DNA from: a virus
Strand: one strand, 5' to 3'
Length of the DNA stretch: 64,000 nt
Virus record (IMG/VR): IMGVR_UViG_3300025887_000010
Span: 62,863 to 126,862 of that record
Shown here: positions 16,530 to 62,517 of the stretch, piece after piece
Numbering within the stretch: the first letter of the stretch is position 1
How the letters are laid out: every line of letters begins with the position of its first letter
The notes under the pieces: model-generated
The model's database searches: none
Told to the model about the DNA's origin: nothing
What the model saw: only the letters and a program-made list of their open reading frames with translations
Program-made: the position numbers and the translations under genes

Positions 16530-16617
16530 TCAGAGGTTCCCAGTGTTTCGCTGGGAACCTTTGTTGTTCGTGACTGTGTAATATATTTGAGGTTATTCAT
16601 TGAACTCAGTGAACTCC
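16530..16617 (+). repeat. Conserved ~88 bp intergenic element, copy 1 (most divergent)
   Basis: TCAGAGG-hairpin(AGGTTCCCAGTG/CGCTGGGAACCT)-ATATATT-ACTCAGTGAACTC. Confidence 0.6.
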
Positions 16618-16639
16618 TGGTTAACCCGAAGGAAATTCC

Positions 16640-17161
16640 ATGTCTCATGCCGAAATCAGAGAGCTCGTAAAGCAATCTCAGTCATTCGTCCGCACTAACC
16701 AGTTTCGAGTAGAGTTTACGCTGCCATCAGGTCTCAAGGAATTTGACATTCGGCGATTGTCTCTGAACTGTCACACGGCCAAGATTCCTGGTTACTCGAT
16801 CGAGAACTACACCCATGCGATTTCGGGTGCTCCTGAGACTCAGCATGCTGCAACGACAAAATATGTAGAAGCGAGTTTCGGTTTCTACCAATCGAAAGAC
16901 TTCCATGAATTCGACGTTTTCGATGAATGGAGAAAGATCATTGTCGACACTGAGACTGGAAAGCTTGGCTACTTCAATGACTACACGACCTCAATTTATG
17001 TCATCCCCCTTCTTTCGAACGATCGAAGGCTACGAACGATCGAGCTTCTCGATTGCAAACCAACGACGATGGGTGAAACTGATCTGAGCTTCAAATCTCA
17101 AAACGAGATTGCCGAGCTCACTGTCTCGATGAGCTACACTCGTTATAGAACTGTCACTTAA
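16640..17161 (+). CDS. gp54: Baseplate tail-tube initiator
   Basis: RTNQFRVEF, LNCHTAKIPG, FDEWRKII, LTVSMSYTRY (tube-like paralog). Confidence 0.8.
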   Translation: MSHAEIRELVKQSQSFVRTNQFRVEFTLPSGLKEFDIRRLSLNCHTAKIPGYSIENYTHAISGAPETQHAATTKYVEASFGFYQSKDFHEFDVFDEWRKIIVDTETGKLGYFNDYTTSIYVIPLLSNDRRLRTIELLDCKPTTMGETDLSFKSQNEIAELTVSMSYTRYRTVT

Positions 17162-17175
17162 CTGGAGAGAACACA

Positions 17176-17874
17176 ATGGGTCTTCCTAAGATTACACAAA
17201 CCAAAACGTCTGTCACACTTCCTTCTGGGAAGAAGATTCGAATTCGACCATTTGTCGGATCCGAAGAAAAGGCACTGCTCATGTCAAAGCAATCGACTCA
17301 GAAGGGTGATCGAATCAATGCAGCGATGGATGTGCTTTCGAGCTGTTCCGACTATGATGTCTCGAAGTTTCCAATGACAGATTTCGAATTCCTCTTCATG
17401 AAGGCCTACGAAATCTCTGTCAGTCAGACGATAGACATCGGTCTTCGTTGTCGAGCCAAGGATTGCGAAGAAGTCCTTTCCGCTTCCATCCCACTTGATC
17501 AGATCGAAGTTCCGAAGCTCGAGAAGAAACGCTGTAAGATCGACGTCGGCCTTGATGAAAATGGCGATCCTGTCAAGCTCTTCATTCGAATTCCTACCGT
17601 TGGTGAAGCTCTTAAAGTTCAGGATGATGAAAATGCAGACGTTCGACTCATCTTCGAGTGCCTTGAGGGTGTGTATGTCAAGGATGAAAAGGCTGAAATC
17701 GACGACTTCGCAGAGTTCGAAGATTGGTTCATGAGTCAACAGGACCTGTATCGAAAATGCACAGTCTTTCTCAACTCCATTCCTCGGATCGAGTTCGTTC
17801 GTGATTGGGAATGTCCTTCATGCAAGCACCAAAATCACACCGTCATGAGGGGATTCGACTCTTTTTTCTCCTAA
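17176..17874 (+). CDS. gp26: Baseplate hub subunit
   Basis: MGLPKI...LPSGKKIRIRPFVGSEEKALL, DFEFLF, C-terminal CPSC and GFDSFF. Confidence 0.9.
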   Translation: MGLPKITQTKTSVTLPSGKKIRIRPFVGSEEKALLMSKQSTQKGDRINAAMDVLSSCSDYDVSKFPMTDFEFLFMKAYEISVSQTIDIGLRCRAKDCEEVLSASIPLDQIEVPKLEKKRCKIDVGLDENGDPVKLFIRIPTVGEALKVQDDENADVRLIFECLEGVYVKDEKAEIDDFAEFEDWFMSQQDLYRKCTVFLNSIPRIEFVRDWECPSCKHQNHTVMRGFDSFFS

Positions 17875-17876
17875 TC

Positions 17877-18056
17877 ATGGCGTATTCTAACATAGGTGTG
17901 TTCTACAACACGGTCTCGACCATGAAGATGGCGCAGGCTGGAACCTGGACGATTGGAGAGATTGAAGCTCTCACACCAATGGAACGATCAATGCACATCG
18001 AACTCATGACGACCTATCTAAAAGAGCTTGCTCGACGGGATAAAATAGTCAAATAG
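17877..18056 (+). CDS. gp51: Baseplate hub assembly catalyst-like protein
   Basis: WTIGEIEALTPMERSMHI; follows gp26 as in T4-likes. Confidence 0.75.
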   Translation: MAYSNIGVFYNTVSTMKMAQAGTWTIGEIEALTPMERSMHIELMTTYLKELARRDKIVK

Positions 18057-18089
18057 TCATCAAATAGATGAAAATGAGTTGGATACCCC

Positions 18090-18377
18090 ATGACTGACAA
18101 AACCTTTGAAGAATTTCTAAAGGCCCGATGGACGTACCGCCGTCGGGTCATGTTCACGACACTCTGCTTCTACTTCTCTTCGATCGCCTTCATTCTCTAC
18201 AAGGCCGATCCTGCAGATATCGGACACTACAACGGGATGCTGGTTCAGCTGACGATCTCGTTCTCCACAGTTTCAGTTGCCTACTTCGGCGCATCCTCTT
18301 ACGAGAGAGTGAACCAAGATGTTCAGAAGGACTTGGCGAATTTCAACGAGACGATGCGAGACAAGCTCGACAAGTAA
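18090..18377 (+). CDS. Two-TM membrane protein, holin candidate
   Basis: WTYRRRVMF followed by two hydrophobic segments and a charged tail. Confidence 0.5.
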   Translation: MTDKTFEEFLKARWTYRRRVMFTTLCFYFSSIAFILYKADPADIGHYNGMLVQLTISFSTVSVAYFGASSYERVNQDVQKDLANFNETMRDKLDK

Positions 18378-18386
18378 GGAAAAACG

Positions 18387-21035
18387 ATGATCACAGTCAA
18401 ACTCAACGCAAGCAAGGACGGTTCACGGATCGTCCTTGACAAACCTGTTCGCTTTGAGCCTGGAGTTCGATACGTCATCAATTCAGATTTCGACATCTTC
18501 CTGACATGGAAAAATCGCGAAACTCATCTCGATGAGACCTTCGAAAGTGGATTGAACTTTCCCGTTCCAAACTTCACCACTCAGGAACACTATGGTCGGT
18601 TCAACGACAATCTTCTCTACTGGATTTACAACGATCCAATGGCGAATCTGACAGGAATTCCTCTCGGACTGGCAAACAGCATCATACAAGAGACCACACT
18701 GGACGAATATTGGGACAGCCCCCTGAGCGAGCTGTACAATTCACTGGTCGGAAACCAAGTGATCGCGAATCGCACAATCGCAGAGGTGTTTCAGAACCTC
18801 ACAGATGACAACAATATCCGAAGCTTCGAACCTGTTCAATCTGGTGACAATTCGGGTCGAATCTTCGAAAACAGCATTCCATACTTCGCAGTTGCGACTG
18901 CATCAGGTCGTGTCGATCCATCGTCATATCGTCTGTCTTTCGAAGATGGTGAATTCATGGTCTACCTGGAAACGGCAGTTGCAGACGCTGTCGTCAAGAC
19001 TGATCTCTACCATTACGCCTCGTCAAACGGTTCTACGTCTGTTGAGTTTGTAATTCAGCCTGGAGAAACTAGATCGTTCTTTATCAACGATCTGAATCGA
19101 TCTCTCGATGACTTCGAAATTGAGCCGAAAGAGTCGAGAGATAATCTCGTCAATGTGAACGGTCGGTTCAGTGAGTACATCCTTGCGACATATCCTCGAC
19201 TATATGATTTCGTCAACACCTACATCCAATCTCAGAACCTTTACGAGACTCCTCAGTCGTACCTCACCAACCTCATCGACGACACGATTCCCGAAAGGAT
19301 GGGGGATGACCTGAGGCGATCGAAGAACCAGCAGTCTTTCAGCTTCAAATCCCACATGATCGATGACAACGACCTTCTGTTGAGCACCGCAGATTTCGCG
19401 AAGAATAAAGGCACCAAGAAATCGATCGAGTGGCTGGCGGAAGCTGTGTATGGTAATTCAGTCGAGACCACAAACTACCAGGAACAAATCATGCGACTGA
19501 GCGGATCGAAATGGTTTGAGCGCTATTCGATTTACTTTACGAGAGACTCACTTCCTTTTGCTATCGACGATCTTCAAGGTCGAAAGATCAGGGGTTCAAA
19601 CTCGAAATGTGAAGGCATCATCGAGAGTGCGAAAGTCTCATTCATCTCGAGCTTGAAGGAGATTGTCGAACTCGTAGTTCGAATGGACTTCGGCGAGTTC
19701 AATGAAGACGACATCTTTTCGATCTCTTCAAAAGAGGTCAGTGATGACTCTATGAATCTCGGCATTGTGGACATCGAAGTAGTCAATGGAGGATTTGGCA
19801 ACAAGGTTGGCGACAAAATCAATCTGAAGTCCTCAACTGGTTCGAAATTCGAAGGTGTCATCTCAGAAGTCGGAAGCCTAGGACAAGTTGAGTCCGTTCA
19901 GATCAACCAGATCGGTTGGAACTTCAGGAGTTTCCAAACCCCGTCTGTAGTGCGCAAAGGACTGAATGACTTTGTCCCTGAAGCGAGGTTCATTCAGGTC
20001 AGTGAGAAGTCGAACGACTTCTCGTTCAAGATGGAATTTCGTAATGTCATCTATGAAGCATCGATCGACTTTTTGAGCCAGACACTTTCCGTTCTGGATC
20101 GGACATTTTCCCACCCGTCACTCCGATTCCCGTCACAGGTAATGGGTCTTGCCCTTCTTGATGGCGTTATCTCAGTTGTGTCCTTCGATGAAACCTCAAT
20201 CTGGATCATTGATGAGATCGGAGGAATCTATAGTACTGAGGTTCCCTACAACTTCTTGGCAACTTCGAACGGTTTGAATGGTGTCATACTCGACACAGAC
20301 ACAAACACCGTAAGAACATTCGACATCCAGAGACTTAAGGAATCTGGAGAGCTTTCGATCTTGACAGAATTTGGTGTCGGTGCGAATTCGTACTTCTCGA
20401 TCTCTGCTTCCGCCCGATCAATCTTCATCACATCCGACATCGTGGACATGTACGAATATGAAGGAAATTCTCAAGATGGTGATTTGAACCCTTTCCGAAT
20501 TCTCGAAGTTCTGGTTGACGCTGATGATGAAGTCATTATCGACGATCTCACTGAAGAAGCTCTCATCATCTTCAGGAACTTTCGATCGAACACCTACATC
20601 CCGTTCGTTTTCGAAGATGGAGTTTTCGAAGATGATGTGTTTGAAGGTGACGAATTCAAGCTCTTTAACATCTCTGTCGTTTCGAAAAACGGAATCGAAT
20701 TCATCACTGCGGAAAGCTCATTCAACCTTTACTCACTCCAGATCACCCTGTCGAACGAAGTCGTTCCAAAAATCAAAGTGAAGACTGGTCGTATTATCAA
20801 GAAACAAGGTTCATACATCAACAGTGATGGACATCTCAGCTCGAATCAGAAGATGATCGGAACAACGTATCAGCCGTTCTCAGTTGGGTTCGAAACGGAA
20901 ACTCTCTCTCGGAACATGAAGGAATTGCTTGAAGGTGATGCTCTCATGCCAGGAATGATATATAAAGGTCTTGTCCCTGTTGTCGCTGAGAGTGAATCTG
21001 TTCTCCTCATTGGCACTGCGGAAGTCCTGGAATAA
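18387..21035 (+). CDS. Baseplate wedge protein (gp7-like)
   Basis: YPRLYDFV...FAKNKGTKKSIEWL...IMRLSGSKW, GFG/VESVQI repeats, DGHLSSNQK, YQPFS. Confidence 0.65.
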   Translation: MITVKLNASKDGSRIVLDKPVRFEPGVRYVINSDFDIFLTWKNRETHLDETFESGLNFPVPNFTTQEHYGRFNDNLLYWIYNDPMANLTGIPLGLANSIIQETTLDEYWDSPLSELYNSLVGNQVIANRTIAEVFQNLTDDNNIRSFEPVQSGDNSGRIFENSIPYFAVATASGRVDPSSYRLSFEDGEFMVYLETAVADAVVKTDLYHYASSNGSTSVEFVIQPGETRSFFINDLNRSLDDFEIEPKESRDNLVNVNGRFSEYILATYPRLYDFVNTYIQSQNLYETPQSYLTNLIDDTIPERMGDDLRRSKNQQSFSFKSHMIDDNDLLLSTADFAKNKGTKKSIEWLAEAVYGNSVETTNYQEQIMRLSGSKWFERYSIYFTRDSLPFAIDDLQGRKIRGSNSKCEGIIESAKVSFISSLKEIVELVVRMDFGEFNEDDIFSISSKEVSDDSMNLGIVDIEVVNGGFGNKVGDKINLKSSTGSKFEGVISEVGSLGQVESVQINQIGWNFRSFQTPSVVRKGLNDFVPEARFIQVSEKSNDFSFKMEFRNVIYEASIDFLSQTLSVLDRTFSHPSLRFPSQVMGLALLDGVISVVSFDETSIWIIDEIGGIYSTEVPYNFLATSNGLNGVILDTDTNTVRTFDIQRLKESGELSILTEFGVGANSYFSISASARSIFITSDIVDMYEYEGNSQDGDLNPFRILEVLVDADDEVIIDDLTEEALIIFRNFRSNTYIPFVFEDGVFEDDVFEGDEFKLFNISVVSKNGIEFITAESSFNLYSLQITLSNEVVPKIKVKTGRIIKKQGSYINSDGHLSSNQKMIGTTYQPFSVGFETETLSRNMKELLEGDALMPGMIYKGLVPVVAESESVLLIGTAEVLE

Positions 21036-21083
21036 AATAAACCACTGCTCGATGATAAAATAATATGAAATGGAGACTTAAGA

Positions 21084-22058
21084 ATGGCTGATAGAGTCCT
21101 AAACAGCTTTCCGATTAATGCGAAGTTCGGAAACCAATATCTTGCTGATGGTGAAGCACTCACTATTCGCTCAGAAGTGGCACGAGATGCATCTCTGTTG
21201 TCTGAAAATAACTCAGCATCGAGTGAGGCTGCTGCGAACACTTCTGCAATTACTGCTTCAGATTCTGCTTTAAGTGCATCCGCATCCGCCACAATCGCTA
21301 CGGCTGCAGCAACTGATTTAGAAACTACTCTTGGACTTGCTATAGTCTATAAAAATGATGCACAAACATCGTCTGTCTCAGCTTCTGCTGCTAGCGCTTC
21401 GGCTTCTGCTTCTTCTTCTTCCTCGTCAGCATCAGCTTCAGCAGCTCTCGCGAGTGAGAATTCTGCGGAGAAATGGGCTGTAGAGGCAGAGGATGTTGAA
21501 GTTTCCACAGGCGAATTTTCCGCAAAGCATTGGGCCGCAAAGGCTTCAACTTTCAACCCTGAATTGATTATAGCCTCCTCAAATAACTACCGCACAGGGC
21601 TTATACGTCAGTCAGGGTTCTACGCCAGCCAATCACAAAACAGTGGTACTGCGACGTCAACACTCCCGCCCGCAGTGACGCTCCCCGCAGGGGACTATCT
21701 GCTCGATTACAGCTTCGAGGCCAAGCCTTACGACGCGGGAACAAGTGGTGCTGTTATCGTAGTGCAAGTGGAGATGTACGCGTACATACCGGGTCCTGGC
21801 GTCGGGACAGTGCACCCTCTTGCGGACGTCGACTTCTATGGCAACCACTCGATACGGCCGTACCTGGTTATACGTGACGCAAGTGATCTGGACTACGTTG
21901 TACGCGACAGTGGGCAGCGAACATTCACCTTAGCAGCAGAGACACTTGTTAGCTTCAAGATACAAACGCAAGTATTTAACTCAACCGACCAGGCGCAGTC
22001 TGTGGCCATCACGATGATACGAGCAGCTCGCATAACTCGGATACAAGAACTGACATAG
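21084..22058 (+). CDS. Tail fibre/spike-like protein with an Ala/Ser-rich stalk
   Basis: SASAASASASASSSSS stretch, EKWA...SAKHWAAKA motif, globular C-terminal domain. Confidence 0.65.
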   Translation: MADRVLNSFPINAKFGNQYLADGEALTIRSEVARDASLLSENNSASSEAAANTSAITASDSALSASASATIATAAATDLETTLGLAIVYKNDAQTSSVSASAASASASASSSSSSASASAALASENSAEKWAVEAEDVEVSTGEFSAKHWAAKASTFNPELIIASSNNYRTGLIRQSGFYASQSQNSGTATSTLPPAVTLPAGDYLLDYSFEAKPYDAGTSGAVIVVQVEMYAYIPGPGVGTVHPLADVDFYGNHSIRPYLVIRDASDLDYVVRDSGQRTFTLAAETLVSFKIQTQVFNSTDQAQSVAITMIRAARITRIQELT

Positions 22059-22128
22059 TAAGAATAACGTGACAGTTTACATGAGAGACATGCAATATTC
22101 CATAATGACAAAAAGGTAAGCGAATCAA

Positions 22129-34648: not shown

Positions 34649-34678
34649 GTGTACAATGGAATTCCAATGTGATACTTT
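34649..34678 (+). promoter_or_regulatory. Early promoter
   Basis: GTGTAC-N18-TACTTT. Confidence 0.8.
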
Positions 34679-34713
34679 GAATTATCAAATCAAACAAACA
34701 AAGGAAATCAATC

Positions 34714-35157
34714 ATGGTCAAGAGAGAAACATTTACAGTCGATGAACTCGTTAATGAAGTTAGTCTCTTTGCAAAAACCCCATACGGTGTCAAGCGTGAA
34801 TGGGAAGCACGTCTTTCTATCTACTCCAAAGAATCAATGAAGGAAATTATCGGGAATACCAAAACTCGCCCAGGTGCAATCAACAAATTCAAGATTCATT
34901 TCAAGACAACACCTGCACCTCTTCTCGATATCAAAATGACCGAAAATGAAATCGACATTCTGATGTCCCTTTCATGCAAGGACGATCCATCGAGTCTTGA
35001 TTTTCTTGCAGAAAACACCAATCGCTCTATCGCAAGTGTTCGTGGAATTGTCCGCTCCATGCTGAAGAAAGGACTCGTAGCTGAAGATGATGAATCTGCT
35101 CTCATCTGGTTGACTGTGATCGGTATGGCTGAACAAAATCGCAAAAGTGATTATTAG
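34714..35157 (+). CDS. Protein with a C-terminal winged helix-turn-helix (MarR-like)
   Basis: TENEIDILMSL...LAENTNRSIASVRGIVRSMLKKGLV...IWLT..G. Confidence 0.7.
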   Translation: MVKRETFTVDELVNEVSLFAKTPYGVKREWEARLSIYSKESMKEIIGNTKTRPGAINKFKIHFKTTPAPLLDIKMTENEIDILMSLSCKDDPSSLDFLAENTNRSIASVRGIVRSMLKKGLVAEDDESALIWLTVIGMAEQNRKSDY

Positions 35158-35171: not shown

Positions 35172-35258
35172 TCAGAGGAACTCAGGGATTCACTGGGTTC
35201 CTCCCTGCCGTTTGATGTATATTATATTGTCAATTTCTGAATAGACTCAGTGAGCTTC
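35172..35258 (+). repeat. Conserved ~88 bp intergenic element, copy 2
   Basis: TCAGAGGAACTCAGGGATTCACTGGGTTCCTC...TTGATG..ATATTGTCAA...GACTCAGTGAGCTTC. Confidence 0.85.
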
Positions 35259-35288
35259 AGGTTTATTGAGTGAATCAGTCACTTTAGT

Positions 35289-35318
35289 ATGTACATGTCT
35301 AGTGGAATGTGATATCAT
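35289..35318 (+). promoter_or_regulatory. Early promoter
   Basis: ATGTAC-N18-TATCAT. Confidence 0.7.
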
Positions 35319-40556: not shown

Positions 40557-40586
40557 GTGTACTTGTAGCATAGAATGTGATATTCT
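40557..40586 (+). promoter_or_regulatory. Early promoter
   Basis: GTGTAC-N18-TATTCT. Confidence 0.85.
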
Positions 40587-40615
40587 AAAATTACAGAAAC
40601 AAAGGAAACCATCAA

Positions 40616-48066: not shown

Positions 48067-48519
48067 ATGAAAAATCCATCAAAGAATGCCGACGAGATCA
48101 ATCGCTATCGCATTAATTTCGATATGATGCTTCATGTCTTCGAGAATGGGAGCAGAAAATCAGGTCGAACCTATCGAACGATTCACAATCTTCAACCGAA
48201 TGATGTGCTCGTTGTTCCGACACATTCATGTGCTCGTCACTACTCATATGAAATCTCCAAGCTTGTGAAACCTATCGACCATGTCCATATCTTGGTGCAC
48301 GACGTTAATAAGGATGGTCGATTGATTGATTACGTTCACAGTGAGTTTCGTGGAAAAGAGAAAATTGGAGAACTGGTTTTGTCCCACGATTGGATACACA
48401 CGTACTACGATTTTCGTCTGCGTAACCTCGCATATGAACTCGACGACATCACTAGCCTTTACCCAGAATTTACGCCAAAAGAAAGTTGCCTGTTTGAGCA
48501 AAAAGTAGTGTACATTTAG
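48067..48519 (+). CDS. Hypothetical protein (start revised)
   Basis: AAAGGA RBS before ATG 48067. Confidence 0.7.
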   Translation: MKNPSKNADEINRYRINFDMMLHVFENGSRKSGRTYRTIHNLQPNDVLVVPTHSCARHYSYEISKLVKPIDHVHILVHDVNKDGRLIDYVHSEFRGKEKIGELVLSHDWIHTYYDFRLRNLAYELDDITSLYPEFTPKESCLFEQKVVYI

Positions 48520-48537
48520 CACAAAATTTGATATTCT
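48508..48537 (+). promoter_or_regulatory. Early promoter
   Basis: GTGTAC-N18-TATTCT; spacer similar to that of the 2831 promoter. Confidence 0.85.
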
Positions 48538-48564
48538 AAAACTACAAAACAAAGGATATCAAAC

Positions 48565-48804
48565 ATGCAAACACTCTCGCTAATCAAGACCATGACTGCA
48601 GAAGAAGCCATTTCCGATGGTTGCAATCTTCATTCTGAAACCTTTCGTGTTCATGTGTACTTGCATGACAATATCGTAATTCTTGAAGAAGGCCACAGCG
48701 GTTTCTCTGTAACCACTCACATCGGTGAAGTTCGCAATGTACCAAAGAAAACCGCGATTAATTTTGTCCTTGGCTCCTCGAATGCCAAACTGGAGATGAA
48801 CTAA
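48565..48804 (+). CDS. Hypothetical protein
   Basis: 79 aa with RBS. Confidence 0.7.
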   Translation: MQTLSLIKTMTAEEAISDGCNLHSETFRVHVYLHDNIVILEEGHSGFSVTTHIGEVRNVPKKTAINFVLGSSNAKLEMN

Positions 48805-51244: not shown

Positions 51245-51274
51245 GTGTACAATCTGTCCCATCTGTGATATGAT
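51245..51274 (+). promoter_or_regulatory. Early promoter
   Basis: GTGTAC-N18-TATGAT. Confidence 0.85.
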
Positions 51275-51300
51275 GGATTTATCAAACAAAGGACTCAATC

Positions 51301-53260: not shown

Positions 53261-53290
53261 GTGTACAAATAGTTCGTAGTGTGTTAGAAT
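53261..53290 (+). promoter_or_regulatory. Early promoter with no ORF before the next promoter
   Basis: GTGTAC-N18-TAGAAT; transcribes into the repeated element. Confidence 0.8.
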
Positions 53291-53304
53291 GGTTTGTTCT
53301 GAAC

Positions 53305-53424
53305 ATTACGAGACAAAACTGACACACAGATGCTTATCAGGAGTACTCAGTGATTCGCTGGGTACTCCGTTCGTATTTGATGAATGATATATTGTCAATC
53401 TGCTCAAGAGACTCAGCGAGCTTC
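53305..53424 (+). repeat. Conserved intergenic element, copy 3 (with extended left flank)
   Basis: ATTACGAGACAAAACTGAC...TCAGGAGTACTCAGTGATTCGCTGGGTACTCC...TTGATGAATGATATATTGTCAA...GACTCAGCGAGCTTC. Confidence 0.9.
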
Positions 53425-53452
53425 ATTTAATTTGTGTTTCTGCAAATGAGTT

Positions 53453-53482
53453 GTGTACATTTATCAACCTTTATGATATTCT
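53453..53482 (+). promoter_or_regulatory. Early promoter
   Basis: GTGTAC-N18-TATTCT; leader shared with the 40557 promoter. Confidence 0.85.
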
Positions 53483-53761: not shown

Positions 53762-53804
53762 ACGATCTCCCATTGATGGAAATCTAATCAACAGGAATTT
53801 GAAT

Positions 53805-53960
53805 ATGACTTATCGCAATCGCATTTCCAAGTCCCGCAGACTCTCAACAAAGGCGAAAAGATTGAAATCTCTCTGGGAGACTACAAAGCAGAACATCAGC
53901 TTCAGTACGAGAAGTCCTACAAATCTGATACCATCAATCCTCATACTGGAGCATATATGA
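53805..53960 (+). CDS. Hypothetical basic protein
   Basis: AGGA RBS; ATGA overlap with the next gene. Confidence 0.45.
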   Translation: MTYRNRISKSRRLSTKAKRLKSLWETTKQNISFSTRSPTNLIPSILILEHI

Positions 53961-54235: not shown

Positions 54236-54254
54236 ATTCACAGGAGGAATCATC

Positions 54255-54683: not shown

Positions 54684-54774
54684 AGCAGGATAGAAGAGAA
54701 TTCAATCTCTTCGATTTCGCACCTGATGGAATTTCCCTTTAGGTTAACCTCAACTCATCGAAAGTGAGAAACAA

Positions 54775-55593: not shown

Positions 55594-55619
55594 GTCGATC
55601 TGAACATCACAAATCAATC

Positions 55620-55649
55620 ATGGCAGCAAGTCTTTCGATTTGTTGCCAT
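55620..55649. terminator. Terminator between convergent genes
   Basis: ATGGCAGCAAGTC-TTTC-GATTTGTTGCCAT. Confidence 0.75.
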
Positions 55650-55834
55650 TGTTGTCAAAAGCGATATCCGAATTTGTCGATTTCCCACGAAAAATGCTTC
55701 CTTACGTGGTTAGCCAGCTTATGGTCTAAGTATTCTCTGTAGTGCTTGTCGACCTTTGATTGGCATTGAGGTGCGGCAACTCTCCCATCTTGAAAATTTG
55801 CCATTCCTTTTGCAGGATTTCGCCGCCATTATGG

Positions 55835-57295
55835 CTACAAGATCACACCAAAATTGAAAACGAGAAACCGGCGCTGCGCGAGCGTGCCGACCGGCTGGAC
55901 ATAGACGACCAGTGCGCCGGGGCGATCCGATGTGTAATTGATGGTCTCATCAAACGTTTGCCATGCGAATTTAGAGACTGGAAAATTGGTCAACTGCGCC
56001 AGTAGCACGCGGTTTTCGACACCCGTGCCACTACCCCAATCACCGCCGGGTTCGGCGCGCAGTAAATAGAGCCGCAGATTGACAGCCGTCAACTCATTGT
56101 CCGACGGGGTGATCCGACCAAAAAAGGATTTTATCTGCGACCCGGCCCGCACATATGGCCCGCTCTGCGCCCAGTCATAGGTTGGGTCGACGCCCGTCCC
56201 GGCATCGTCCAACTGGTTCGTCGTCGAAATGCCTAAATCCTTGTTGAATGTCACCCAGCGGTTGTTTGTCTCCATATAAAACCGCCCGCTGACCTCGACC
56301 AAAACGCCATCGTTTTCGGCTGCTAGACTCAGAAGCCATGCAGCTTCAGTTCCGACGAATCCATTCGTGACAGCAACATCGTATGCGGAAGGACCGTCAG
56401 ACCCGTTGAGACCATCAGCACCAGGGAGACCGTCAGCACCAGTTGCACCAGGAGCACCATCAGCACCTTCGAGACTCAGCAACCACTCAGCTTCAGTTCC
56501 GGCGAATCCACCATTGACTGCGATCTGATATGCAGACAAACCGTCAGCGCCAGTTGCACCATCGAGACCATCTGCACCAGGAGCACCGTCAGCACCTTCG
56601 AGACTCAGAAGCCATGCAGCTTCAGTTCCTACGAAACCCCCATTGACCGCTACTTGATAAGCAGACAAACCGTCAGAACCGTTGACACCATCAGCACCTT
56701 CGAGACTCAGCAACCATGCAGCTTCAGTTCCGACGAAACCACTATTGACTGCGATCTGATATGCGGAAGGACCATCAATGCCGTCAGCACCAGGAGCACC
56801 AGCTGCTCCATCGAGACCGTCAGCACCAGGAGCACCGTCAGTGCCTTTGAGACTCAGCAACCATGCAGCTTCAGTTCCGACGAATCCATTCGTGACAGCA
56901 ACATCGTATGCGGAAGGACCGTCAGCACCAGGGAGACCGTCAGCGCCAGGAGTGCCAGTTGCACCATCGGCTCCTCGAATACTGAAGAGCCATGCGGCTT
57001 CAGTTCCGACGAATCCATTCGCGACAGCAACATCATAGGCTGATAGCCCATCGGCACCGTCGGCACCATTGAGACCGTCGGCACCATCAGCGCCAGGTAA
57101 ACCGTCAGCGCCATCGGCACCATCAGCACCAGCGAGACTGGCGACCCATTCGGCTTGTGTTCCGACGAACCCTTCATCAACTGCTGATTCGTACGCGGTC
57201 AAGCCACCCTGCATGTTTACGATACTTGCGTTTGCGACTCGCACCCTTGCTGGGGCTGAAGTCGTGATTTTGAGTGTAGTTGTGTTAGTCGGCAT
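55835..57295 (-). CDS. Collagen-like repeat tail fibre/adhesin (start revised to MPTNTT)
   Basis: G-X-Y (GAD-rich) runs between seven G.SAY..AV..GF.GTEA.WL.SL units; globular C-terminal domain. Confidence 0.85.
   Translation of the reverse strand: MPTNTTTLKITTSAPARVRVANASIVNMQGGLTAYESAVDEGFVGTQAEWVASLAGADGADGADGLPGADGADGLNGADGADGLSAYDVAVANGFVGTEAAWLFSIRGADGATGTPGADGLPGADGPSAYDVAVTNGFVGTEAAWLLSLKGTDGAPGADGLDGAAGAPGADGIDGPSAYQIAVNSGFVGTEAAWLLSLEGADGVNGSDGLSAYQVAVNGGFVGTEAAWLLSLEGADGAPGADGLDGATGADGLSAYQIAVNGGFAGTEAEWLLSLEGADGAPGATGADGLPGADGLNGSDGPSAYDVAVTNGFVGTEAAWLLSLAAENDGVLVEVSGRFYMETNNRWVTFNKDLGISTTNQLDDAGTGVDPTYDWAQSGPYVRAGSQIKSFFGRITPSDNELTAVNLRLYLLRAEPGGDWGSGTGVENRVLLAQLTNFPVSKFAWQTFDETINYTSDRPGALVVYVQPVGTLAQRRFLVFNFGVIL
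56325..57215 (-). repeat. Coding repeat array of the collagen-like gene
   Basis: Near-identical DNA units such as GACTCAGCAACCATGCAGCTTCAGTTCCGACGAA recur seven times in variants. Confidence 0.9.
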
Positions 57296-57584
57296 AGATG
57301 GTGATCTCCACAATTTCCGCAAAGTTGCTGTCGTTTATGGCTTGAATCCTCATTTGATAAGTTCCTTTCGGCAAAAAAGGTGCAGTCTTCCCATCGATCA
57401 TCACCTGAACGATCCCGTTCGTTCCAACAAACAGTGTGGCTCGATCCGCGATTTCAGTTGATGTAAGGCTACCGACACCAATAAGAGATGCAGATGAGAT
57501 GACCATTAATGTGTCGTCTGGTGTCATGAACTCCAAGGCAACGATGTGGTCCCCACCTGACTTCATGTTGATGCGTGATGACAT
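57285..57584 (-). CDS. Hypothetical beta-rich protein, likely a fibre partner (start revised to MSSRIN)
   Basis: AGGAG RBS; TAAAATA 34 nt upstream. Confidence 0.7.
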   Translation of the reverse strand: MSSRINMKSGGDHIVALEFMTPDDTLMVISSASLIGVGSLTSTEIADRATLFVGTNGIVQVMIDGKTAPFLPKGTYQMRIQAINDSNFAEIVEITIYAD

Positions 57585-57617
57585 GGTTGCTCCTGAGTTC
57601 GTTTGAATTAATTCGAC

Positions 57618-57716
57618 TATTTTACACCCCCCCATCATATTCTTTTCAACAGATCGAAAGACTCAAACGATATTCCCATGAATCGCATTCATTCCCGTCA
57701 GCAATCGAGTAAAATA
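57618..57716. promoter_or_regulatory. Divergent pair of candidate late promoters
   Basis: GTAAAATA on minus (57618-57624) and GTAAAATA on plus (57710-57716), each ahead of a virion/packaging gene. Confidence 0.55.
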
Positions 57717-57726
57717 TGAATGAATA

Positions 57727-59445
57727 ATGCCTACCGAAAAGGACAGTCCTTTGCTTGAGCAATACACCAACCCACGCTGGCTTGAATCAGCACGAGGCAT
57801 CGACGTGGAGCCGCGATTCGACCTCAAAATTCCGAGTATCATCGATCCAAACGAGTACGGTCGTCGCGCCTTCTACATGAACAACAGAAAGATTCGTCGA
57901 GCCTACTTTCCGATCATGTACACTCAGGAGATGCTCGACGAGATTCAGCGTTGTCGTGAGGACGTCATCTACTTCGCTGCTCGATACTTCTACATTCGAA
58001 CGCTTGACTACGGTCGCATCATCATTGATCTGTACGACTATCAGAAAGAGTTCCTTCGCTGTATGGAGTTGCCTGGAGTTCGGAACGCCATCTATTTGGC
58101 TGGTCGTCAGACAGCGAAGTCGACAATCATGACACTCCGCATTCTACACAAAATCCTCTTCAATGAAGACTATCAGATCGCCATCCTCGCGAACAAGGGT
58201 GGCACAGCCCGTGAAATCTTCTCTCGTGTCCGTCTTGCCTACGAGGAGCTCCCATTGTGGATGCAGCCTGGTGTCATCGACTGGAACAAAGGCTCAACCA
58301 CTCTAGAGAATGGTTCGAAAGCGTTCGCTGCATCCACAGCTGATGACTCTGTACGTGGCTTCACACTGAACGAAGTGCTGCTCGACGAATTCGCGTTTGT
58401 GAAGAACGACGTAGACTTCTACAAGTCGACCCTTCCTGTGATCTCATCAGGTACTGATTCGCGACTCACCATGACCTCAACGCCTGACGGCAAGAAGGGC
58501 ATCTTCTACAAAACATGGGAGAAGGCCATCGGAGGCAACAGCAACTTCTTCAGCTTTGGCGTACCCTGGAACCTCGTTCCTGGTCGTGACGAAGAGTGGA
58601 AGATCGCAACGATCGAAGACTCATCACTCCTCGAGTTCCGCATCGAGCACAACATTGAGTTCCTCTCAGGCAAGACCAACCTGATCGACACAGAGGTGCT
58701 CGAAGACATAGAGCTCCACACTCTTCAAAACCCTGAAGACGAATTCGAAGGTGTCCGCATCTACGAGAACCCTGAAGAGGGGCAATCGTATGTAACCATC
58801 GTCGACACAGCTGAGGGCAAAGGACAGGACTATTCGACCTTCTCCGTCATCAACGTGACCGAACAGCCGTATCGACAGGTTGCTGCATACCAGAACAACG
58901 ACATCTCACCACTCCTCTTCGCAGCATTCGTCGACACATGGGCAAAGCACTACAACGAATCCCAACTGGTCGTAGAGAACAACAACGCTTCGGGCTCACT
59001 CGTCGCTGTGTCTCTTCGCAACGACTATGACTACGACAACCTCTATTGCATGAACGCCAAGGATGAGATGGGGATCGGCATCCGCACCACAACCAAAGTC
59101 AAGTCGATCGGGTGCTCCACACTACGGGGTCTCCTACGTTCGAAGAAGCTGACAGTGCGGGACCGTGAGACATACAACGAACTCTGCACCTTTGAATCGA
59201 AAGGCACCTCATACGAAGCCTCCAAGGGATGCACAGACGATCTCGTACAGAACCTCTGGCTCTTTGCCTGGTACACGACACAGGTCGAATTCGAAGAGCA
59301 CCTCGAAGGTGAGTCCATTGCTGACGACATCTTTGGTGCTGAGATCGAAGCCATACAGGGGATCGCACTTCCTGGTGGCTCCAACGAGGGCCCAACACAA
59401 AGCAACCACCAGAGCGGCTACGGTTCTGTAAACGACATCTGGTAA
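57727..59445 (+). CDS. gp17: Terminase large subunit
   Basis: LYDYQKE, GRQTAKST, ILANKG..AREI, QPGVIDWNKGS..LENGS, LDEFAFV, STPDG, VDTAEGKGQDYS, VENN, DDLV. Confidence 0.96.
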   Translation: MPTEKDSPLLEQYTNPRWLESARGIDVEPRFDLKIPSIIDPNEYGRRAFYMNNRKIRRAYFPIMYTQEMLDEIQRCREDVIYFAARYFYIRTLDYGRIIIDLYDYQKEFLRCMELPGVRNAIYLAGRQTAKSTIMTLRILHKILFNEDYQIAILANKGGTAREIFSRVRLAYEELPLWMQPGVIDWNKGSTTLENGSKAFAASTADDSVRGFTLNEVLLDEFAFVKNDVDFYKSTLPVISSGTDSRLTMTSTPDGKKGIFYKTWEKAIGGNSNFFSFGVPWNLVPGRDEEWKIATIEDSSLLEFRIEHNIEFLSGKTNLIDTEVLEDIELHTLQNPEDEFEGVRIYENPEEGQSYVTIVDTAEGKGQDYSTFSVINVTEQPYRQVAAYQNNDISPLLFAAFVDTWAKHYNESQLVVENNNASGSLVAVSLRNDYDYDNLYCMNAKDEMGIGIRTTTKVKSIGCSTLRGLLRSKKLTVRDRETYNELCTFESKGTSYEASKGCTDDLVQNLWLFAWYTTQVEFEEHLEGESIADDIFGAEIEAIQGIALPGGSNEGPTQSNHQSGYGSVNDIW

Positions 59446-59464
59446 TAGATAGGACACCGACATC

Positions 59465-61903
59465 ATGACCTTCACCAACTTCATCCGAACCACTGTACAA
59501 AAGCAGACTTCTTCTCTCTCCTCTATAGTAAAGGAGTACGATAGCTTCTCCAACAACGTCACCTCGTTCCTTTCTACTAGGCTACGTTCACCTCAACCTC
59601 CAACCAACCTCGTCTTCAAATCAGGTCGAGTCTCTTTCTCTGAATATGAGAAGAGCATGCAGCCTTCTATCTCCAACCTCTCTAGTGATGGACCTTCATC
59701 CACAGGCATCACCAGCTATCTACCGAGTAGCCAGGATGTACTCAGCGTACTCAGTGCATCCCAGGAGCAAGAATTCACGTCCCTCCGAGTGCAGATTCAA
59801 CAACTTCTCCTTAGTACAAGGGATTTGTTCGAATCCTCTGCATCTGTTCCCATTCTCTTGTCCCAGAATCATAGTGGAGAAAAGGGTACCAGCGCGATTT
59901 TAACAGCGTTCGAGAACTGGGACACTCGTAAGGATGCAGACGTCTCTATACGAGATCAGCTGCTGACCATCGCTACTACACTGCTATCTACGCGATCCTC
60001 ACTCACTCAGTTGCGTCTACGGTTCTCTCTGCCATCTCCTGTGGTCACCTTCGAACTGCGACTCACCCAGATCATTCAGAGGTTCGAACGGTTGCTTGAA
60101 CAGTACTCAGAACCGTTCGAACAGATGACAGAGAGTGCACTCGAAATCGAGCAGTCTATCGACGTACCCCATAGAGTCTCACTGAATAGGACTGTTGGGA
60201 TCGCATCTACCCTACGCAACAGGTTCTTTCGGTTCGTTCGTGCTGAATACGTGCGAGGTCAGCTGTCATCGATACCTGCCCAGTCGTCATCATTCGCAGG
60301 GAATGCAAGAGACCCTGGTTCTGAGAAGGACGTCATCACAGGTATCGCAAGTCCCAATGCCCGTATGGCAGTATCAAGAGTTGGTGTGCTTGACGATGAT
60401 GCTGTATCCTTCGGACCTCTGACTGAAGATGAGTTCGTTCAGTTTGCAAACAACATCGTATCGTATCTCGGAACCTCTGCCTCTACAGTGAATGCGACAG
60501 GCTTTCTCGGATCCTATCAGTTTGGTGCGAATGAACTGATTCGACTTGGGTATGTGAAGCCTGGTACAACGAACCTATCACTCAAGGTACCATCGATGTG
60601 GACAGGCAAAGATGGCATCAGTTCGAGAGACTCATTCCTTTCAGCTGATCAGAGACCCATCTTTCTGACTGAATGCAAGTACCTCTACTCACGACTCATT
60701 TCGATGGGTGTGCTTGAGTCTACAGACATGAAGGCTAAGGTCAAAGGATACGTAGCGATCGCATCTATACAGACACTGAGTGCTGCGAATCAGCAGACTC
60801 AAGGCATTTCGTTCCAAACAGCTGGGGGTCGTACGAATTCAGCAATCTTCAGTCAGTTTGCTGATGGACCTATAGAGACGATGAATCGTGAAGAGTCTGA
60901 AGCAAATCAGGTTGCCGCATCAGCAAACTACATGCCTGACTCAATGCCATTTAGCATGCCTTCATCGACAGCAGCACCGGTCTATCCGCACAATCATGTC
61001 GATCATTCGGAGTCTGGGCATTACAGGGAAGTTGACGATACTCCTGGTTCTGAACGCATTGCTGAAAGACATCGTACAGGGACTGGATATGAGATCGATG
61101 AGAATGGGACCCAACGCAATGTGATTCGAAAGGATCGGTACACACTGATCTGTGGTGATGACTTTGTGATGGTGAATGGAAACGTCAACATCTTCGTGGA
61201 AGGTGATGCAGGAATCGTAGCCAACAACGTAACGATCAATACGAAAGAGGACCTCAACATCACATGCGGTTCGTCTCTCAACATCAAGGCTGCAGACATG
61301 AACATTGAGATCGAAGGTCAGAAGGTTGAAACGATTGGTGCTGACTCTGCATTGAGTGTTGGTGGTTTCATGACTGCAGCAATCGAAGGCAATCTTCAAT
61401 TCGACTCTAAGGCATTCGCTGCAGTTGCGCGATCAGGCACTCTCAATCTTGAGGCTTCTGAGTCCATTGGTCTGAGGTCAGATGATGCAATCAATGCAGT
61501 CGCAACCTCAGACATCTCAATCTTCAGTGCAGCATCCACAACAGTGGGTTCGAGTGGTAACGTTTCGATTGCTGGTGGCGGTAATGTTGGAATCAGTGGA
61601 TCAGGGTCAGCAACTCTCTTTGGTTCGAGTGGAACATTCGTCTCATCTGATGGGAATGTTTCGATTGCAGGTTCAGGACCCATTCGACTCTCACATCCTG
61701 TTGAAAAGGCTCTGTATGCTGATACAGCAGGTCTTGCTACTCTTGGAACCCCAGTGCCAATCAGTCCATCAGGTTCATCGAGTGATGGTGGAATCAGTGC
61801 AACTCTTCAGACTACAGACGAATCGACTCAAAACCTTGGAGAGCTCGTCTCACTCTATACACTGTCATCATTCGATTCGAGTGAAGCGTCCTCAAAGGGA
61901 TGA
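59465..61903 (+). CDS. gp5: Baseplate hub / cell-puncturing protein, gp5-like
   Basis: YPHNHV..SESGH..EVDDTPGSERI..RHRTGT.YEI followed by beta-helix repeats; central GSYQFG...WTGKDGI lysozyme-like region. Confidence 0.85.
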   Translation: MTFTNFIRTTVQKQTSSLSSIVKEYDSFSNNVTSFLSTRLRSPQPPTNLVFKSGRVSFSEYEKSMQPSISNLSSDGPSSTGITSYLPSSQDVLSVLSASQEQEFTSLRVQIQQLLLSTRDLFESSASVPILLSQNHSGEKGTSAILTAFENWDTRKDADVSIRDQLLTIATTLLSTRSSLTQLRLRFSLPSPVVTFELRLTQIIQRFERLLEQYSEPFEQMTESALEIEQSIDVPHRVSLNRTVGIASTLRNRFFRFVRAEYVRGQLSSIPAQSSSFAGNARDPGSEKDVITGIASPNARMAVSRVGVLDDDAVSFGPLTEDEFVQFANNIVSYLGTSASTVNATGFLGSYQFGANELIRLGYVKPGTTNLSLKVPSMWTGKDGISSRDSFLSADQRPIFLTECKYLYSRLISMGVLESTDMKAKVKGYVAIASIQTLSAANQQTQGISFQTAGGRTNSAIFSQFADGPIETMNREESEANQVAASANYMPDSMPFSMPSSTAAPVYPHNHVDHSESGHYREVDDTPGSERIAERHRTGTGYEIDENGTQRNVIRKDRYTLICGDDFVMVNGNVNIFVEGDAGIVANNVTINTKEDLNITCGSSLNIKAADMNIEIEGQKVETIGADSALSVGGFMTAAIEGNLQFDSKAFAAVARSGTLNLEASESIGLRSDDAINAVATSDISIFSAASTTVGSSGNVSIAGGGNVGISGSGSATLFGSSGTFVSSDGNVSIAGSGPIRLSHPVEKALYADTAGLATLGTPVPISPSGSSSDGGISATLQTTDESTQNLGELVSLYTLSSFDSSEASSKG

Positions 61904-61961
61904 ACACACAACAATCCCTCACATTCGTGTTGAGTGTGAGGGAGAATCGAATTGGTTTGGC

Positions 61962-62255
61962 TTAAGACATGAACTCATCGAAGTACGATTGATTGAATGC
62001 AACCAATTCTTCGATCGAATCGTAACGATTGAATTTGCCTTCCTTGACGTAGGTCGTTGGGTAGAATTCAGAATCAACTTCATCTGTGTTGCAATCTTGA
62101 ACATCGACGAATTGACCTTGGTCCTTGACGATTGCACATTGTAGGAAACCATCATATGTGAATGAGAAACCGTATTCGGTCTCCTTTACGTTTTCGGACA
62201 TTCCTTTGAATGCTGAGTTCGATTCGAAGAGTGCTTCCAGTTGCTTGACAGTCAT
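61962..62255 (-). CDS. Hypothetical protein (start revised to MTVKQL)
   Basis: AAAGGAG RBS directly after the promoter. Confidence 0.8.
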   Translation of the reverse strand: MTVKQLEALFESNSAFKGMSENVKETEYGFSFTYDGFLQCAIVKDQGQFVDVQDCNTDEVDSEFYPTTYVKEGKFNRYDSIEELVAFNQSYFDEFMS

Positions 62256-62282
62256 GATTGAGTCTCCTTTGTTTATAGTTCG

Positions 62283-62312
62283 ATTATAGACTATCGGAGA
62301 CGCAATGTACAC
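62283..62312 (-). promoter_or_regulatory. Early promoter
   Basis: GTGTAC-N18-TATAAT. Confidence 0.9.
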
Positions 62313-62320
62313 AGCTCGTT

Positions 62321-62362
62321 TTGCATCGCATACACAACCGATTGCATCGCATACACAACCGA
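62321..62362. repeat. Perfect 21 bp tandem duplication
   Basis: TTGCATCGCATACACAACCGA x2. Confidence 0.95.
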
Positions 62363-62396
62363 CTGACGATCCGTCCATTCATTTCTTGTTCCGTAA

Positions 62397-62517
62397 ATTA
62401 CGAGACAATACTGACTTCCGATCAATCTTCAGGAGTAACCAGTGACTCACTGAGTAACGTATGCCAGGTTGATGAATAATATATTGTCGAAGCAGGTGGT
62501 GTGACCCAGAGAGCTTC
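62397..62517 (+). repeat. Conserved intergenic element, copy 4 (with extended left flank)
   Basis: ATTACGAGACAATACTGAC...TCAGGAGTAACCAGTGACTCACTGAGTA...TTGATGAATAATATATTGTCGA...GACCCAGAGAGCTTC. Confidence 0.9.

Follow-up and report, generated by a model that had tools for sequence, protein, structure and literature searches.

We identified a family of non-coding repeats in the genome of an uncultured T4-like phage. Each copy may be a boundary cassette between transcription units, made up of a terminator, a site for a DNA-binding factor and a point of re-initiation. We hold this reading tentatively, at a probability of about 0.4. The original prediction had described four copies of an 88-bp element defined by a hairpin. 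We found seven full loci and a marginal eighth, in units of ~150–250 bp, and their constant part is not the hairpin, which is absent from three of the seven copies, but a 68-bp dyad centred on a short AT-rich box (box B).

The repeat family in the phage genome

The window, that is, the whole stretch of 64,000 nucleotides that was analysed, is half of a circularly permuted genome of ~123.4 kb. The phage is distantly related to phiM9. Its terminase is 49–53% identical to those of phiM9, Atu_ph04 and RHph_N34, which places it in the T4 superfamily, and its baseplate hub, tail tube and VrlC-like protein gave further matches. Homologues of the tail-tube protein with 67–99% identity show that closer relatives exist. 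Searches of the genome detected no MotA, AsiA, RegA, HU/IHF-type, HTH_3 or sigma region-2 protein. An ECF sigma factor, a lead taken from phiM9, was rejected: the genome has only a sigma region-4-like HTH, without region 2, and this HTH lies at the N-terminus of an Mre11/SbcD-type exonuclease.

Alignment recovered all four copies first described, on the plus strand of the window, and a degenerate TCAG-plus-hairpin pattern matched exactly these four sites in the window and none in 100 dinucleotide shuffles. Of the layout given for them, TGATGnATnnTATATTGTC is exact in copies 2–4, and GACyCAGnGAGCTTC is exact in copies 2–4 and degenerate in copy 1. A profile HMM (nhmmer) and a covariance model extended the family to seven full loci, four in the window (c1–c4) and three outside it on the minus strand (c5–c7), with E values of 1e-19 to 1e-28 and no other full locus in the 123 kb. 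The decayed eighth copy, c8, was marginal (nhmmer E=0.0035, covariance model E=0.61). The copies in the window are laid out as follows.

5388–5452, minus strand: c8, decayed eighth copy, with a good box C at 5403–5417 (1 mismatch) and an AT-rich box B remnant; on reading the sequence, it occupies the principal divergent intergenic region, with a minus-strand early promoter downstream of it
16530–16563, plus strand: c1, TCAG box and 15-bp hairpin with a T-rich tail, terminator-like (scan; fold −37.6 kcal/mol, z=−5.0)
16570–16626, plus strand: c1, degenerate box B and box C (alignments)
35172–35203, plus strand: c2, TCAG box and hairpin, beginning 15 nt past the stop codon of a 147-aa ORF (34714–35157)
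35212–35265, plus strand: c2, box B (35212–35233), 10-nt spacer and box C (35244–35265)
35290–35318, plus strand: c2, downstream early promoter Pe2, TGTACA-N17-TATCAT, assigned by consensus, driving small ORFs and the helicase gene
53262–53336, plus strand: c3, upstream early promoter Pe1 (53262–53290) and a ~40-nt non-coding leader, GTTTGTTCTGAA..AGACAA..TGAC
53337–53368, plus strand: c3, TCAG box and 13-bp hairpin with the tail GTTCGTATTT, terminator-like (scan, fold)
53377–53430, plus strand: c3, box B (53377–53398), spacer and box C (53410–53430)
53454–53482, plus strand: c3, downstream early promoter Pe2 (consensus)
62384–62518, plus strand: c4, segment resembling the leader, hairpin region whose outer stem is broken, box B (62469–62490) and box C (62503–62518)
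62531–62559, minus strand: c4, early promoter in the Pe2 position but reversed, TGTACA-N17-TATAAT

Copies 3 and 4 share ATTACGAGACAAwACTGAC upstream, as had been noted. The c4 locus recurs at genome positions 1846–1980 because the contig ends overlap. One copy, c1, lies within the operon of late structural genes, ahead of the tail-tube gene (identified via PHROGs); its box segment ends 13 nt short of the ATG at 16640. The c1 hairpin segment lies 3' of a 162-aa ORF. In seven of the eight copies the direction is that of local transcription, and all except c4 face away from the divergence point at ~68.3 kb of the genome, where c8 is found.

A wider search added no copies from other phages. Blastn of c2 against GenBank phages gave no match. 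A scan of IMG/VR with the exact box B returned 11 chance matches and no relatives, and the only match of a JGI metagenome scan with boxes B and C was at the c4 locus, on a 1.9-kb contig of this phage itself. Tail-tube and helicase searches of IMG/VR and GTDB genomes reached only matches of up to 34% identity, and the covariance model, which had yielded further copies within the genome, detected none in those loci or in phiM9 1–50 kb. In agreement with the prediction that the element belongs to no catalogued RNA family, Rfam gave nothing at the gathering threshold across the window; at a permissive threshold around five copies, the matches were at chance level (E 0.9–4.8, well below gathering). 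No tRNA or tmRNA was detected either.

Block-wise conservation of a 68-bp dyad

The invariant core consists of TCnCTGrGT, 12 nt, the 22-mer TTGATGnATnnTATATTGTCAA (box B), 13 nt and ACyCAGnGA, and as a dyad it is imperfect. Among c2–c7, box B is 81–100% and box C 60–88% identical. The spacers are 18–75% identical, about the level of unrelated sequence, and their length is constant within 1 nt. Such drifted spacers of fixed length between conserved boxes indicate that the copies have diverged over a long time while selection maintained the boxes and their spacing, the evidence being a comparison of paralogues within one genome. The non-coding repeat family is genuine, and its copies are, on this comparison, old paralogues under selection. 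The dyad elements A3, box B and box C are complementary in 88% of cells across all seven copies, compared with 28–59% when the alignment is slid.

Whether the dyad acts as DNA or RNA was approached through its mismatches and folds. The non-Watson–Crick cells of the outer arms (4 G·U versus 3 A·C) show no strand bias, as expected of a DNA repeat. Two mismatches are invariant in the box B dyad, and each reads as G·T on the sense strand, which would suit an RNA helix too. In c2, c3 and c5 an alternative fold on the dyad comes to within 4–13 kcal/mol of the hairpin. In c6 it is near the unconstrained minimum (−31.4 versus −35.8 kcal/mol), with the spacers pairing as well. In c1, c4 and c7 the dyad folds only weakly.

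No ORF lies behind the conservation, as the original prediction had held. A coding explanation was rejected: the ATG of TTGATG opens ORFs of 4–17 codons, without a Shine–Dalgarno sequence, and the conservation is of nucleotide type. The loop and box C contain GANTC (CcrM) sites, but these were set aside, GANTC being common in the genome (752 sites). By eye, the consensus sequences of IHF, FNR/CRP, sigma-70 (−35/−10), Fis, PhoB, CtrA, ECF sigma factors and dif gave partial resemblances that were inconsistent across copies, and box B did not fit the IHF consensus WATCAANNNNTTR. Words resembling box C (CAGnGAGCTy) occur six times outside the family, mostly in coding sequence as Glu-Leu codons. 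The boxes match nothing described, and we infer their role from the sequence.

The hairpin and the flanking promoters

Intact hairpins occur in c1, c2, c3 and c5, and c4, c6 and c7 lack them; the original prediction had the outer stems pairing in three of its four copies, and our folds agree, with pairing in copies 1–3 and a broken stem in copy 4. The intact hairpins contain 44 Watson–Crick, 7 G·U and no A·C pairs, and their antisense folds are 8–18 kcal/mol weaker in all four copies, a sense-strand bias. Fold z-scores for c1–c4 were −5.0, −2.4, −3.2 and +0.7. In c1, c3 and c5 a GC-containing stem of 13–15 bp carries a 3-nt loop and is followed by a T-rich tail, which is thus present in at least three of the four intact copies, and the T-richness of the spacer behind the stem tracks hairpin integrity. 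The sequence of the upper stem and loop region is conserved across copies. In c6 and c7, which lack this hairpin, another strong hairpin is built on box C.

A terminator scan called c1 and c3, and c5 is terminator-like by eye. The hairpin therefore looks like a sense-strand RNA terminator in these copies; the c2 hairpin has a poor U-tract, making termination there doubtful, and no intrinsic terminator was recognized in c4, c6 or c7. An attenuator with box C as antiterminator was rejected, because box C would be transcribed only after the terminator, and no leader segment complementary to the 5' arm of the hairpin was seen. The covariation claimed for the hairpin exists, four pairs having two-sided changes, but with so few sequences it did not rise above that of shuffled controls.

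The promoters flanking the copies match the consensus of an early-promoter family with ~30 members in the genome, of which only 7–8 carry the module. An early promoter lies 24–54 bp past five full copies (c2, c3, c5, c6 and c7) and another follows c8; the −35 boxes reported ~30 bp beyond copies 2 and 3 belong here. The promoter after box C is missing in c1 and inverted in c4, and with a backward-facing promoter c4 would be transcribed antisense, as the original prediction had proposed. Box B and the −35 are 77–78 bp apart in three copies and 68 and 96 bp apart in two others, and this variability argues that the dyad is an autonomous unit and not a promoter extension. Upstream, c3, c5 and c7 have a further early promoter ~115–123 bp 5' of box B, and no ORF. 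In c3 and c5 the terminator-like hairpin follows ~45–55 nt past the transcript start predicted from Pe1. The leader is 51–73% identical among copies, near background. The hairpin ends ~90 bp upstream of the Pe2 −35 and ~55–60 bp downstream of the Pe1 −10.

A proposed boundary cassette and its alternatives

Taken as a boundary cassette, a copy would work as follows. In c1, c2, c3 and c5 the sense transcript would fold into the 13–15-bp hairpin, and in c1, c3 and c5 the hairpin with its T-rich spacer would stop or attenuate RNA polymerase. The polymerase would arrive from the upstream gene at c1 and c2, and at c3 and c5 from the dedicated early promoter ~115 bp 5' of box B, which otherwise would yield only an ~85-nt non-coding leader. 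The dyad behind the hairpin would be the docking site for a predicted sequence-specific factor, phage- or host-encoded, that acts on DNA. The early sigma-70-type promoter 24–54 bp onward would then restart transcription of the next genes. Termination, factor binding and an effect on the adjoining promoter are all things we infer from the sequence. The missing downstream early promoter of c1, the antisense direction of c4, the doubtful terminator of c2, the two G·T mismatches in the box B dyad and the negative genome searches for a binding protein speak against this reading. The roles first listed for the element (protein binding, recombination, genome organization or a small RNA) still include the likely answer, although the larger terminator and early-promoter cassette had been missed.

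The first alternative, which we consider unlikely, is that box B itself acts as a promoter and belongs to a temporal class of its own (middle or variant late), so that each copy would read terminator, class-2 promoter, early promoter, with box C at the transcript start. Tandem promoters of differing classes are common in T4. Box B does contain an invariant −10-like TATATT, with a TG at −15/−14 in c3. Furthermore, c1 box B includes GTGTAAtATA, one mismatch from this phage's late-promoter word GTGTAAAATA, between a good terminator and the tail-tube ATG. The ~110 nt upstream of that ATG contain no YAAAATA word, and thus the tail-tube gene seems to need a promoter exactly at c1 box B. However, the region from −30 to −35 is random spacer and offers no −35 or activator box in a conserved position; a sigma-70 −35 hexamer 16–18 bp upstream would fall in that unconserved spacer, and promoter scans did not call box B. 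TTGATG would lie at −23 to −18, which agrees with the geometry of no promoter known. Across the genome the late word YAAAATA, of the T4 TATAAATA type, has a strong strand bias (19:1), and the box B variants (TAATATA, TGATATA and TATTATA) differ from it. No MotA, AsiA or extra sigma factor was found in the genome, and a promoter would leave unexplained both the conservation that flanks the AT core on either side and the dyad formed with box C.

The functional product might instead be RNA, which we judge rather unlikely: either a small RNA that starts at the upstream early promoter and ends at the hairpin, or a structured intercistronic RNA in which the 3' arm of the hairpin pairs with its own 5' arm or with box C, serving processing or stability much as the T7 RNase III sites do. 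The confinement of G·U pairs to the sense strand in the hairpin and the box B stem is consistent with this, as are the dyad folds of c2, c3, c5 and c6 and the consensus early promoters, without an ORF, ahead of c3, c5 and c7, two of which (c3 and c5) lead into a terminator-like hairpin. The small-RNA proposal fits these three copies only; c1 and c2 have no promoter of their own, and boxes B and C, the best conserved, lie behind the terminator. The near-background leader, the weak dyad fold in three copies, the A·C cells as frequent as G·U in the outer arms, and the covariation and Rfam results also argue against RNA as the product.

A more ambitious reading, improbable in our view, takes the dyad as the site of a new phage-encoded regulator or as an origin-type nucleoprotein site. 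The 7–8 copies would then be polar control points around the genome of a T4-like phage whose lineage lacks MotA/AsiA, and would govern either its exit from early transcription or its replication start. If true, this would be a new kind of genome-wide control element in T4-superfamily phages.

The boxes could also lack a function of their own and be PeSL-like or MITE-like sequence, spread and homogenized by the phage's very active homologous recombination. The copies are indeed mosaics; c7, for example, joins the box B variant of c2 and c5 to the loop of c4 and the leader of c3, c4 and c5. The c4 promoter is inverted at the palindromic TGTACA, and the tandem duplications immediately upstream of c4 differ between the two strains compared. 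Gene conversion, however, would homogenize whole tracts, whereas here the spacers are random and the boxes and their spacing fixed. The copies have neither terminal inverted repeats nor target duplications, and the genome encodes no transposase, resolvase or integrase. We consider neutral spread quite improbable, and were the boxes such passengers, the finding would be ordinary. A dedicated recombination site, one of the roles first listed, is likewise weakened, because the genome encodes no recombinase for it: neither PF00589 nor PF00239 (tyrosine and serine types) gave a match there at E≤1.

The T4 origins oriF and oriG and the primary origin of T7 offer a model for transcription-primed replication origins or another polar DNA signal, in which RNA from the early promoter would enter an AT-rich box where the DNA unwinds, but although c3, c5 and c7 are laid out as promoter, ~85 nt and AT-rich box, and the dispersed copies other than c4 point away from the divergence point where c8 is found, we think this very improbable: a terminator separates promoter and box, the pure A/T core of box B is just ~11 bp, orientation is fully confounded with gene direction, and T4 origins are not known to share a sequence family.

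Of these readings we prefer the boundary cassette. To our knowledge, T4-superfamily phages beyond the T-even group have no MotA/AsiA, and strictly built, selected cassettes at unit boundaries would offer a handle on how early, middle and late genes are timed without them. Even without a phage culture, the cassettes can be cloned and assayed for their ability to terminate transcription, to drive it and to bind protein.

Comparison with known systems

The early-region RNase III sites of T7 also form a family of related intercistronic hairpins with an internal loop on the sense strand. Here, by contrast, the internal loop would be 12 x 13 nt of unconserved sequence, and the fold is weak in three copies. 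In the BIME/RIB-RIP elements of Escherichia coli, inverted REP units flank an IHF site, and the elements are dispersed at the 3' ends of transcription units and upstream of the next promoter. The architecture of the phage copies, with inverted repeats around a central AT-rich box, is similar and serves as a lead only: there is no sequence relation, the setting is a phage genome and not a bacterial chromosome, and box B is not IHF-like by eye. With intrinsic (Rho-independent) terminators the hairpins of c1, c3 and c5 share stem, loop, T-rich tail and sense-strand-specific pairing. They differ in the conserved sequence of the upper stem and loop; c2 has no U-tract, c4, c6 and c7 are stemless, and such terminators would not explain boxes B and C.

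The closest likeness is to the promoter-early stem-loop (PeSL) cassettes known in the T4-type phages RB49/phi1, T4/PST and KVP40/nt-1, which are the precedent for repeats combining a terminator with an early promoter in such phages (Arbiol et al. 2010, PMC2839356; Comeau et al. 2014, PMC4122927). Like those cassettes, the family here is intergenic and repeated, its units measure ~100 bp or more, and its phage belongs to the T4 superfamily. In PeSL cassettes a stable stem-loop containing G·T pairs, which is taken to terminate or attenuate transcription from upstream, stands together with a strong sigma-70-type early promoter and the ribosome site of the next gene; the present copies have a comparable hairpin and a putative promoter, recognized by consensus after box C in c2, c3, c5, c6, c7 and c8. 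Sequence conservation makes PeSL copies substrates for homologous recombination, and the copies described here could likewise double as homology patches. The mosaic copies and the inverted c4 promoter are at most suggestive of PeSL-type recombination.

The two differ in what is constant. In PeSL cassettes the stem-loop lies over or right beside the promoter, with no further conserved part, whereas here the hairpin stands well upstream of the −35 and is dispensable in three of the seven copies, and two extra boxes in a dyad of fixed spacing are best conserved. The module is also restricted to a minority of the early promoters, and one copy lies among late structural genes. By analogy, the phage cassette is best read as a more elaborate variant of the PeSL cassettes. 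It would carry the PeSL concept over to a remote lineage within the superfamily, in which the constant part is the extra boxes and not the hairpin.

Results

The repeated element is a family of seven

The original prediction was of a four-copy intergenic family. Alignment placed the four copies where predicted, the degenerate hairpin pattern matched only these four sites (0 in 100 shuffles), and the two downstream boxes said to be conserved were exact in copies 2-4. Neighbouring promoters were also found at the predicted positions. The count of four was too small, however. A profile HMM built from seven copies recovered exactly those seven loci (E 1e-19 to 1e-28) and one marginal match, and the covariance model that had been proposed as a check gave the same picture. 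The loci are as follows.

Copy 1, from window 16530: upstream gene, a 162-aa late ORF
Copy 2, from window 35172: upstream gene, a 147-aa early ORF
Copy 3, from window 53337: upstream, a denV-like gene and UDP-sugar dehydrogenase pair
Copy 4, from window 62429: 0.5 kb inside the end of a minus-strand block, read antisense from a minus-strand promoter
Copy 5, 22-bp core verified at genome 44,906, minus strand: upstream gene, a 124-aa ORF
Copy 6, core verified at genome 23,836: upstream gene, DHFR
Copy 7, core verified at genome 11,597: upstream gene, a 63-aa ORF
Copy 8 (marginal), window 5388-5452, minus strand: main divergent intergenic region

Seven of the eight copies are oriented with local transcription. 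The gene next to copy 4 has its own promoter, which places this copy in non-coding DNA with a promoter on either side. Just upstream of it (window 62321-62375) is a tandem duplication of the ~21-mer GCATCGCATACACAACCGAyT; a near-identical metagenome contig (its positions 440-505) has instead duplicated an overlapping ~23-mer, CAGCTCGTTTTGCATCGCATACA, and the site looks like a tandem-duplication hot spot. Copy 8 keeps a good box C, its box B being reduced to an AT-rich remnant. Its 367-bp intergenic region (window 5241-5609) also holds a (TTGA)5-type microsatellite, GTACAC/GTATAC repeats and promoters both ways. Outside the window, three plus-strand ORFs with weak Rz-like spanin matches (genome 22854-23736) form a small late island in the minus-strand early block, converging on copy 6 and the end of the DHFR gene.

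The host genome is T4-like

The IMG/VR record is 126,862 bp long, of which the window covers 62863-126862. Its two ends share 3,460 bp at 97.4% identity (window 60541-64000, equal to genome 123403-126862, against genome 1-3460), so that the unit genome would be ~123.4 kb and circularly permuted, and copy 4 is present twice in the record. All 90 differences are confined to overlap bases 128-913, within a gp5-like baseplate hub gene, a pattern that points to a circularly permuted genome whose assembly joined two strain variants, the hub protein having a hypervariable patch.

Judged by its gene content, the phage is a T4-superfamily myovirus: the terminase is 49-53% identical to those of phiM9, Atu_ph04 and RHph_N34, and the gp5-like hub, tail tube and a VrlC-like protein are present. 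No close relative was found in IMG/VR, GenBank phages or GTDB genomes, and a single metagenome scan recovered only the same phage; tail-tube homologues (67-99% identity) are present on other contigs. Self-BLAST of a 495-aa ORF (window 55835-57322, minus strand) showed internal tandem repeats at 56325-57172 that are 66-81% identical and spaced by ~150 bp or its multiples (147-665 bp). The stretch holding them is richer in GC (51-53%), and the product may be a repeat-containing protein.

The minus strand carries the genes between ~68.1 and 1.4 kb, and the plus strand those between 68.4 and 124.7 kb (genome). Early promoters form a family of ~30, TGTACw-N17-TAnnnT, often TGTGATAT, usually with a common leader, AACTATAAACAAAGGAGA (for example, window 34650-34713, 40560-40615, 48500-48565 and 51245-51300); many carry a TTTGCAAA/TTGTCAAA motif 20-30 bp upstream of the -35 box. 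The late-promoter word is YAAAATA (window 9599, 10821, 18041, 21033, 21056 and 57710, among others) rather than TATAAATA of T4, which occurs once in the whole genome. TAAAATA occurs 19 times in sense and once in antisense.

Conserved boxes lie at fixed spacing

Each cassette comprises a hairpin and two boxes, B and C. With the first T of box B as position 0, the parts of the cassette are as follows.

About -115 to -123: upstream early promoter (copies 3, 5 and 7), then the non-coding leader GTTTGTTCyGAA..AGACAA..TGAC
-40: TCAGrrG
About -38 to -12: hairpin 1
12 nt: first spacer, free sequence
0 to 21: box B, TTGATGnATnnTATATTGTCAA
10-14 nt: second spacer, free sequence
From about +33: box C, ACyCAGnGArCTyCAGGTTwA
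+77/+78 (copies 2, 3 and 5), +68 (copy 7) or +96 (copy 6): downstream early promoter, TGTACA

At the place of the downstream promoter, copy 4 has a promoter of the same family but in reversed orientation, and copy 1 has the tail-tube ATG.

Identity between copies is 81-100% in box B (copies 2-7), 60-88% in box C and 51-77% in the hairpin region. The two spacers are 18-75% identical, about the level of unrelated sequence, but constant in length to within 1 nt. For these paralogues of one genome, conserved boxes between random, fixed-length spacers indicate old copies in which both the boxes and the distances between them are under selection.

The upper part of the hairpin, CAGTGA-n-TCrCTG, is conserved in sequence, and the lower stem varies from copy to copy. 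Hairpin 1 is intact only in copies 1, 2, 3 and 5; the outer stems proposed earlier do pair in copies 1-3, but that of copy 4 is broken. The predicted covariation was seen as two-sided changes at four pairs, which with seven sequences was not above shuffled controls. A larger, 68-bp dyad is present in all seven full copies. The 3' arm of the hairpin (TCnCTGrGT) is an inverted repeat of box C (ACyCAGnGA), the left and right ends of box B, TTGATG and TGTCAA, likewise form an inverted repeat, and both pairs have a common centre. Complementarity holds in 88% of cells across copies, compared with 28-59% when the partner is slid.

The hairpin and the dyad may act at different levels

Of the pairs in the intact hairpins, 44 are Watson-Crick, 7 are G·U and none is A·C; the antisense folds of these four copies are 8-18 kcal/mol weaker. 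A simple terminator scan called copies 1 and 3, and the spacer 3' of the stem is T-rich in copies with an intact stem but not in those with a broken one; the copy 2 hairpin has a poor U-tract. On this evidence we read the hairpin as a putative sense-strand RNA terminator or attenuator.

For the dyad, a DNA-level site fits better than an RNA helix, because its outer arms lack a G·U bias (4 G·U versus 3 A·C), its fold is energetically weak in copies 1, 4 and 7, and boxes B and C come after the putative terminator hairpin. An RNA reading is kept alive by two invariant G·T mismatches inside the box B dyad and by the near-continuous helix of copy 6. Copies 6 and 7 lack hairpin 1, and each has a different strong hairpin using box C as one arm.

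Discussion

We tentatively propose, with a probability of about 0.4, that the cassette is a transcription-unit boundary. The hairpin would end or attenuate incoming transcription, the fixed-geometry dyad would serve as a docking site for a putative sequence-specific factor, and the next early promoter would restart transcription. The dyad stands 68, 77-78 or 96 bp from the promoter while its internal spacing is constant, indicating that the dyad is an autonomous unit and not an upstream promoter element. No MotA, AsiA, RegA, HU-type, HTH_3 or sigma region-2 protein was found in the genome. The sole sigma-like match was a region-4-like (sigma-70) HTH at the N-terminus of an Mre11/SbcD-type exonuclease (403 aa, phrog_704; genome 14318-15529, minus strand, outside the window).

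It is unlikely that box B is instead a promoter of another class; the best support comes from copy 1, where a good terminator and the tail-tube gene enclose no promoter-like sequence other than this box, GTGTAAtATA. Slightly less probable is that the cassette works through an RNA product, as a small RNA or a processing site. Neutral sequence spread by recombination is more doubtful still, since random spacers between fixed boxes count against it; a search of the genome for a site-specific recombinase found none. That the cassettes are transcription-primed origins or another polar DNA signal seems improbable.

The closest described system to the proposed boundary cassette is the promoter-early stem-loop (PeSL) cassette of T4-type phages, a composite of stem-loop terminator and strong early promoter with ~50 repeats per genome that serves as a recombination linker (PMC2839356, PMC4122927). 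The present cassette is similar in spirit, and its host genome is T4-like. However, it lacks one defining feature of PeSLs, a stem-loop that overlaps or abuts the promoter. It also has, arranged as a fixed 68-bp dyad, two further conserved boxes that are missing from PeSLs and are kept where the hairpin is lost. Because of these two differences, we file the family, on present sequence comparison, as a variant of PeSL-type cassettes rather than as a PeSL member.
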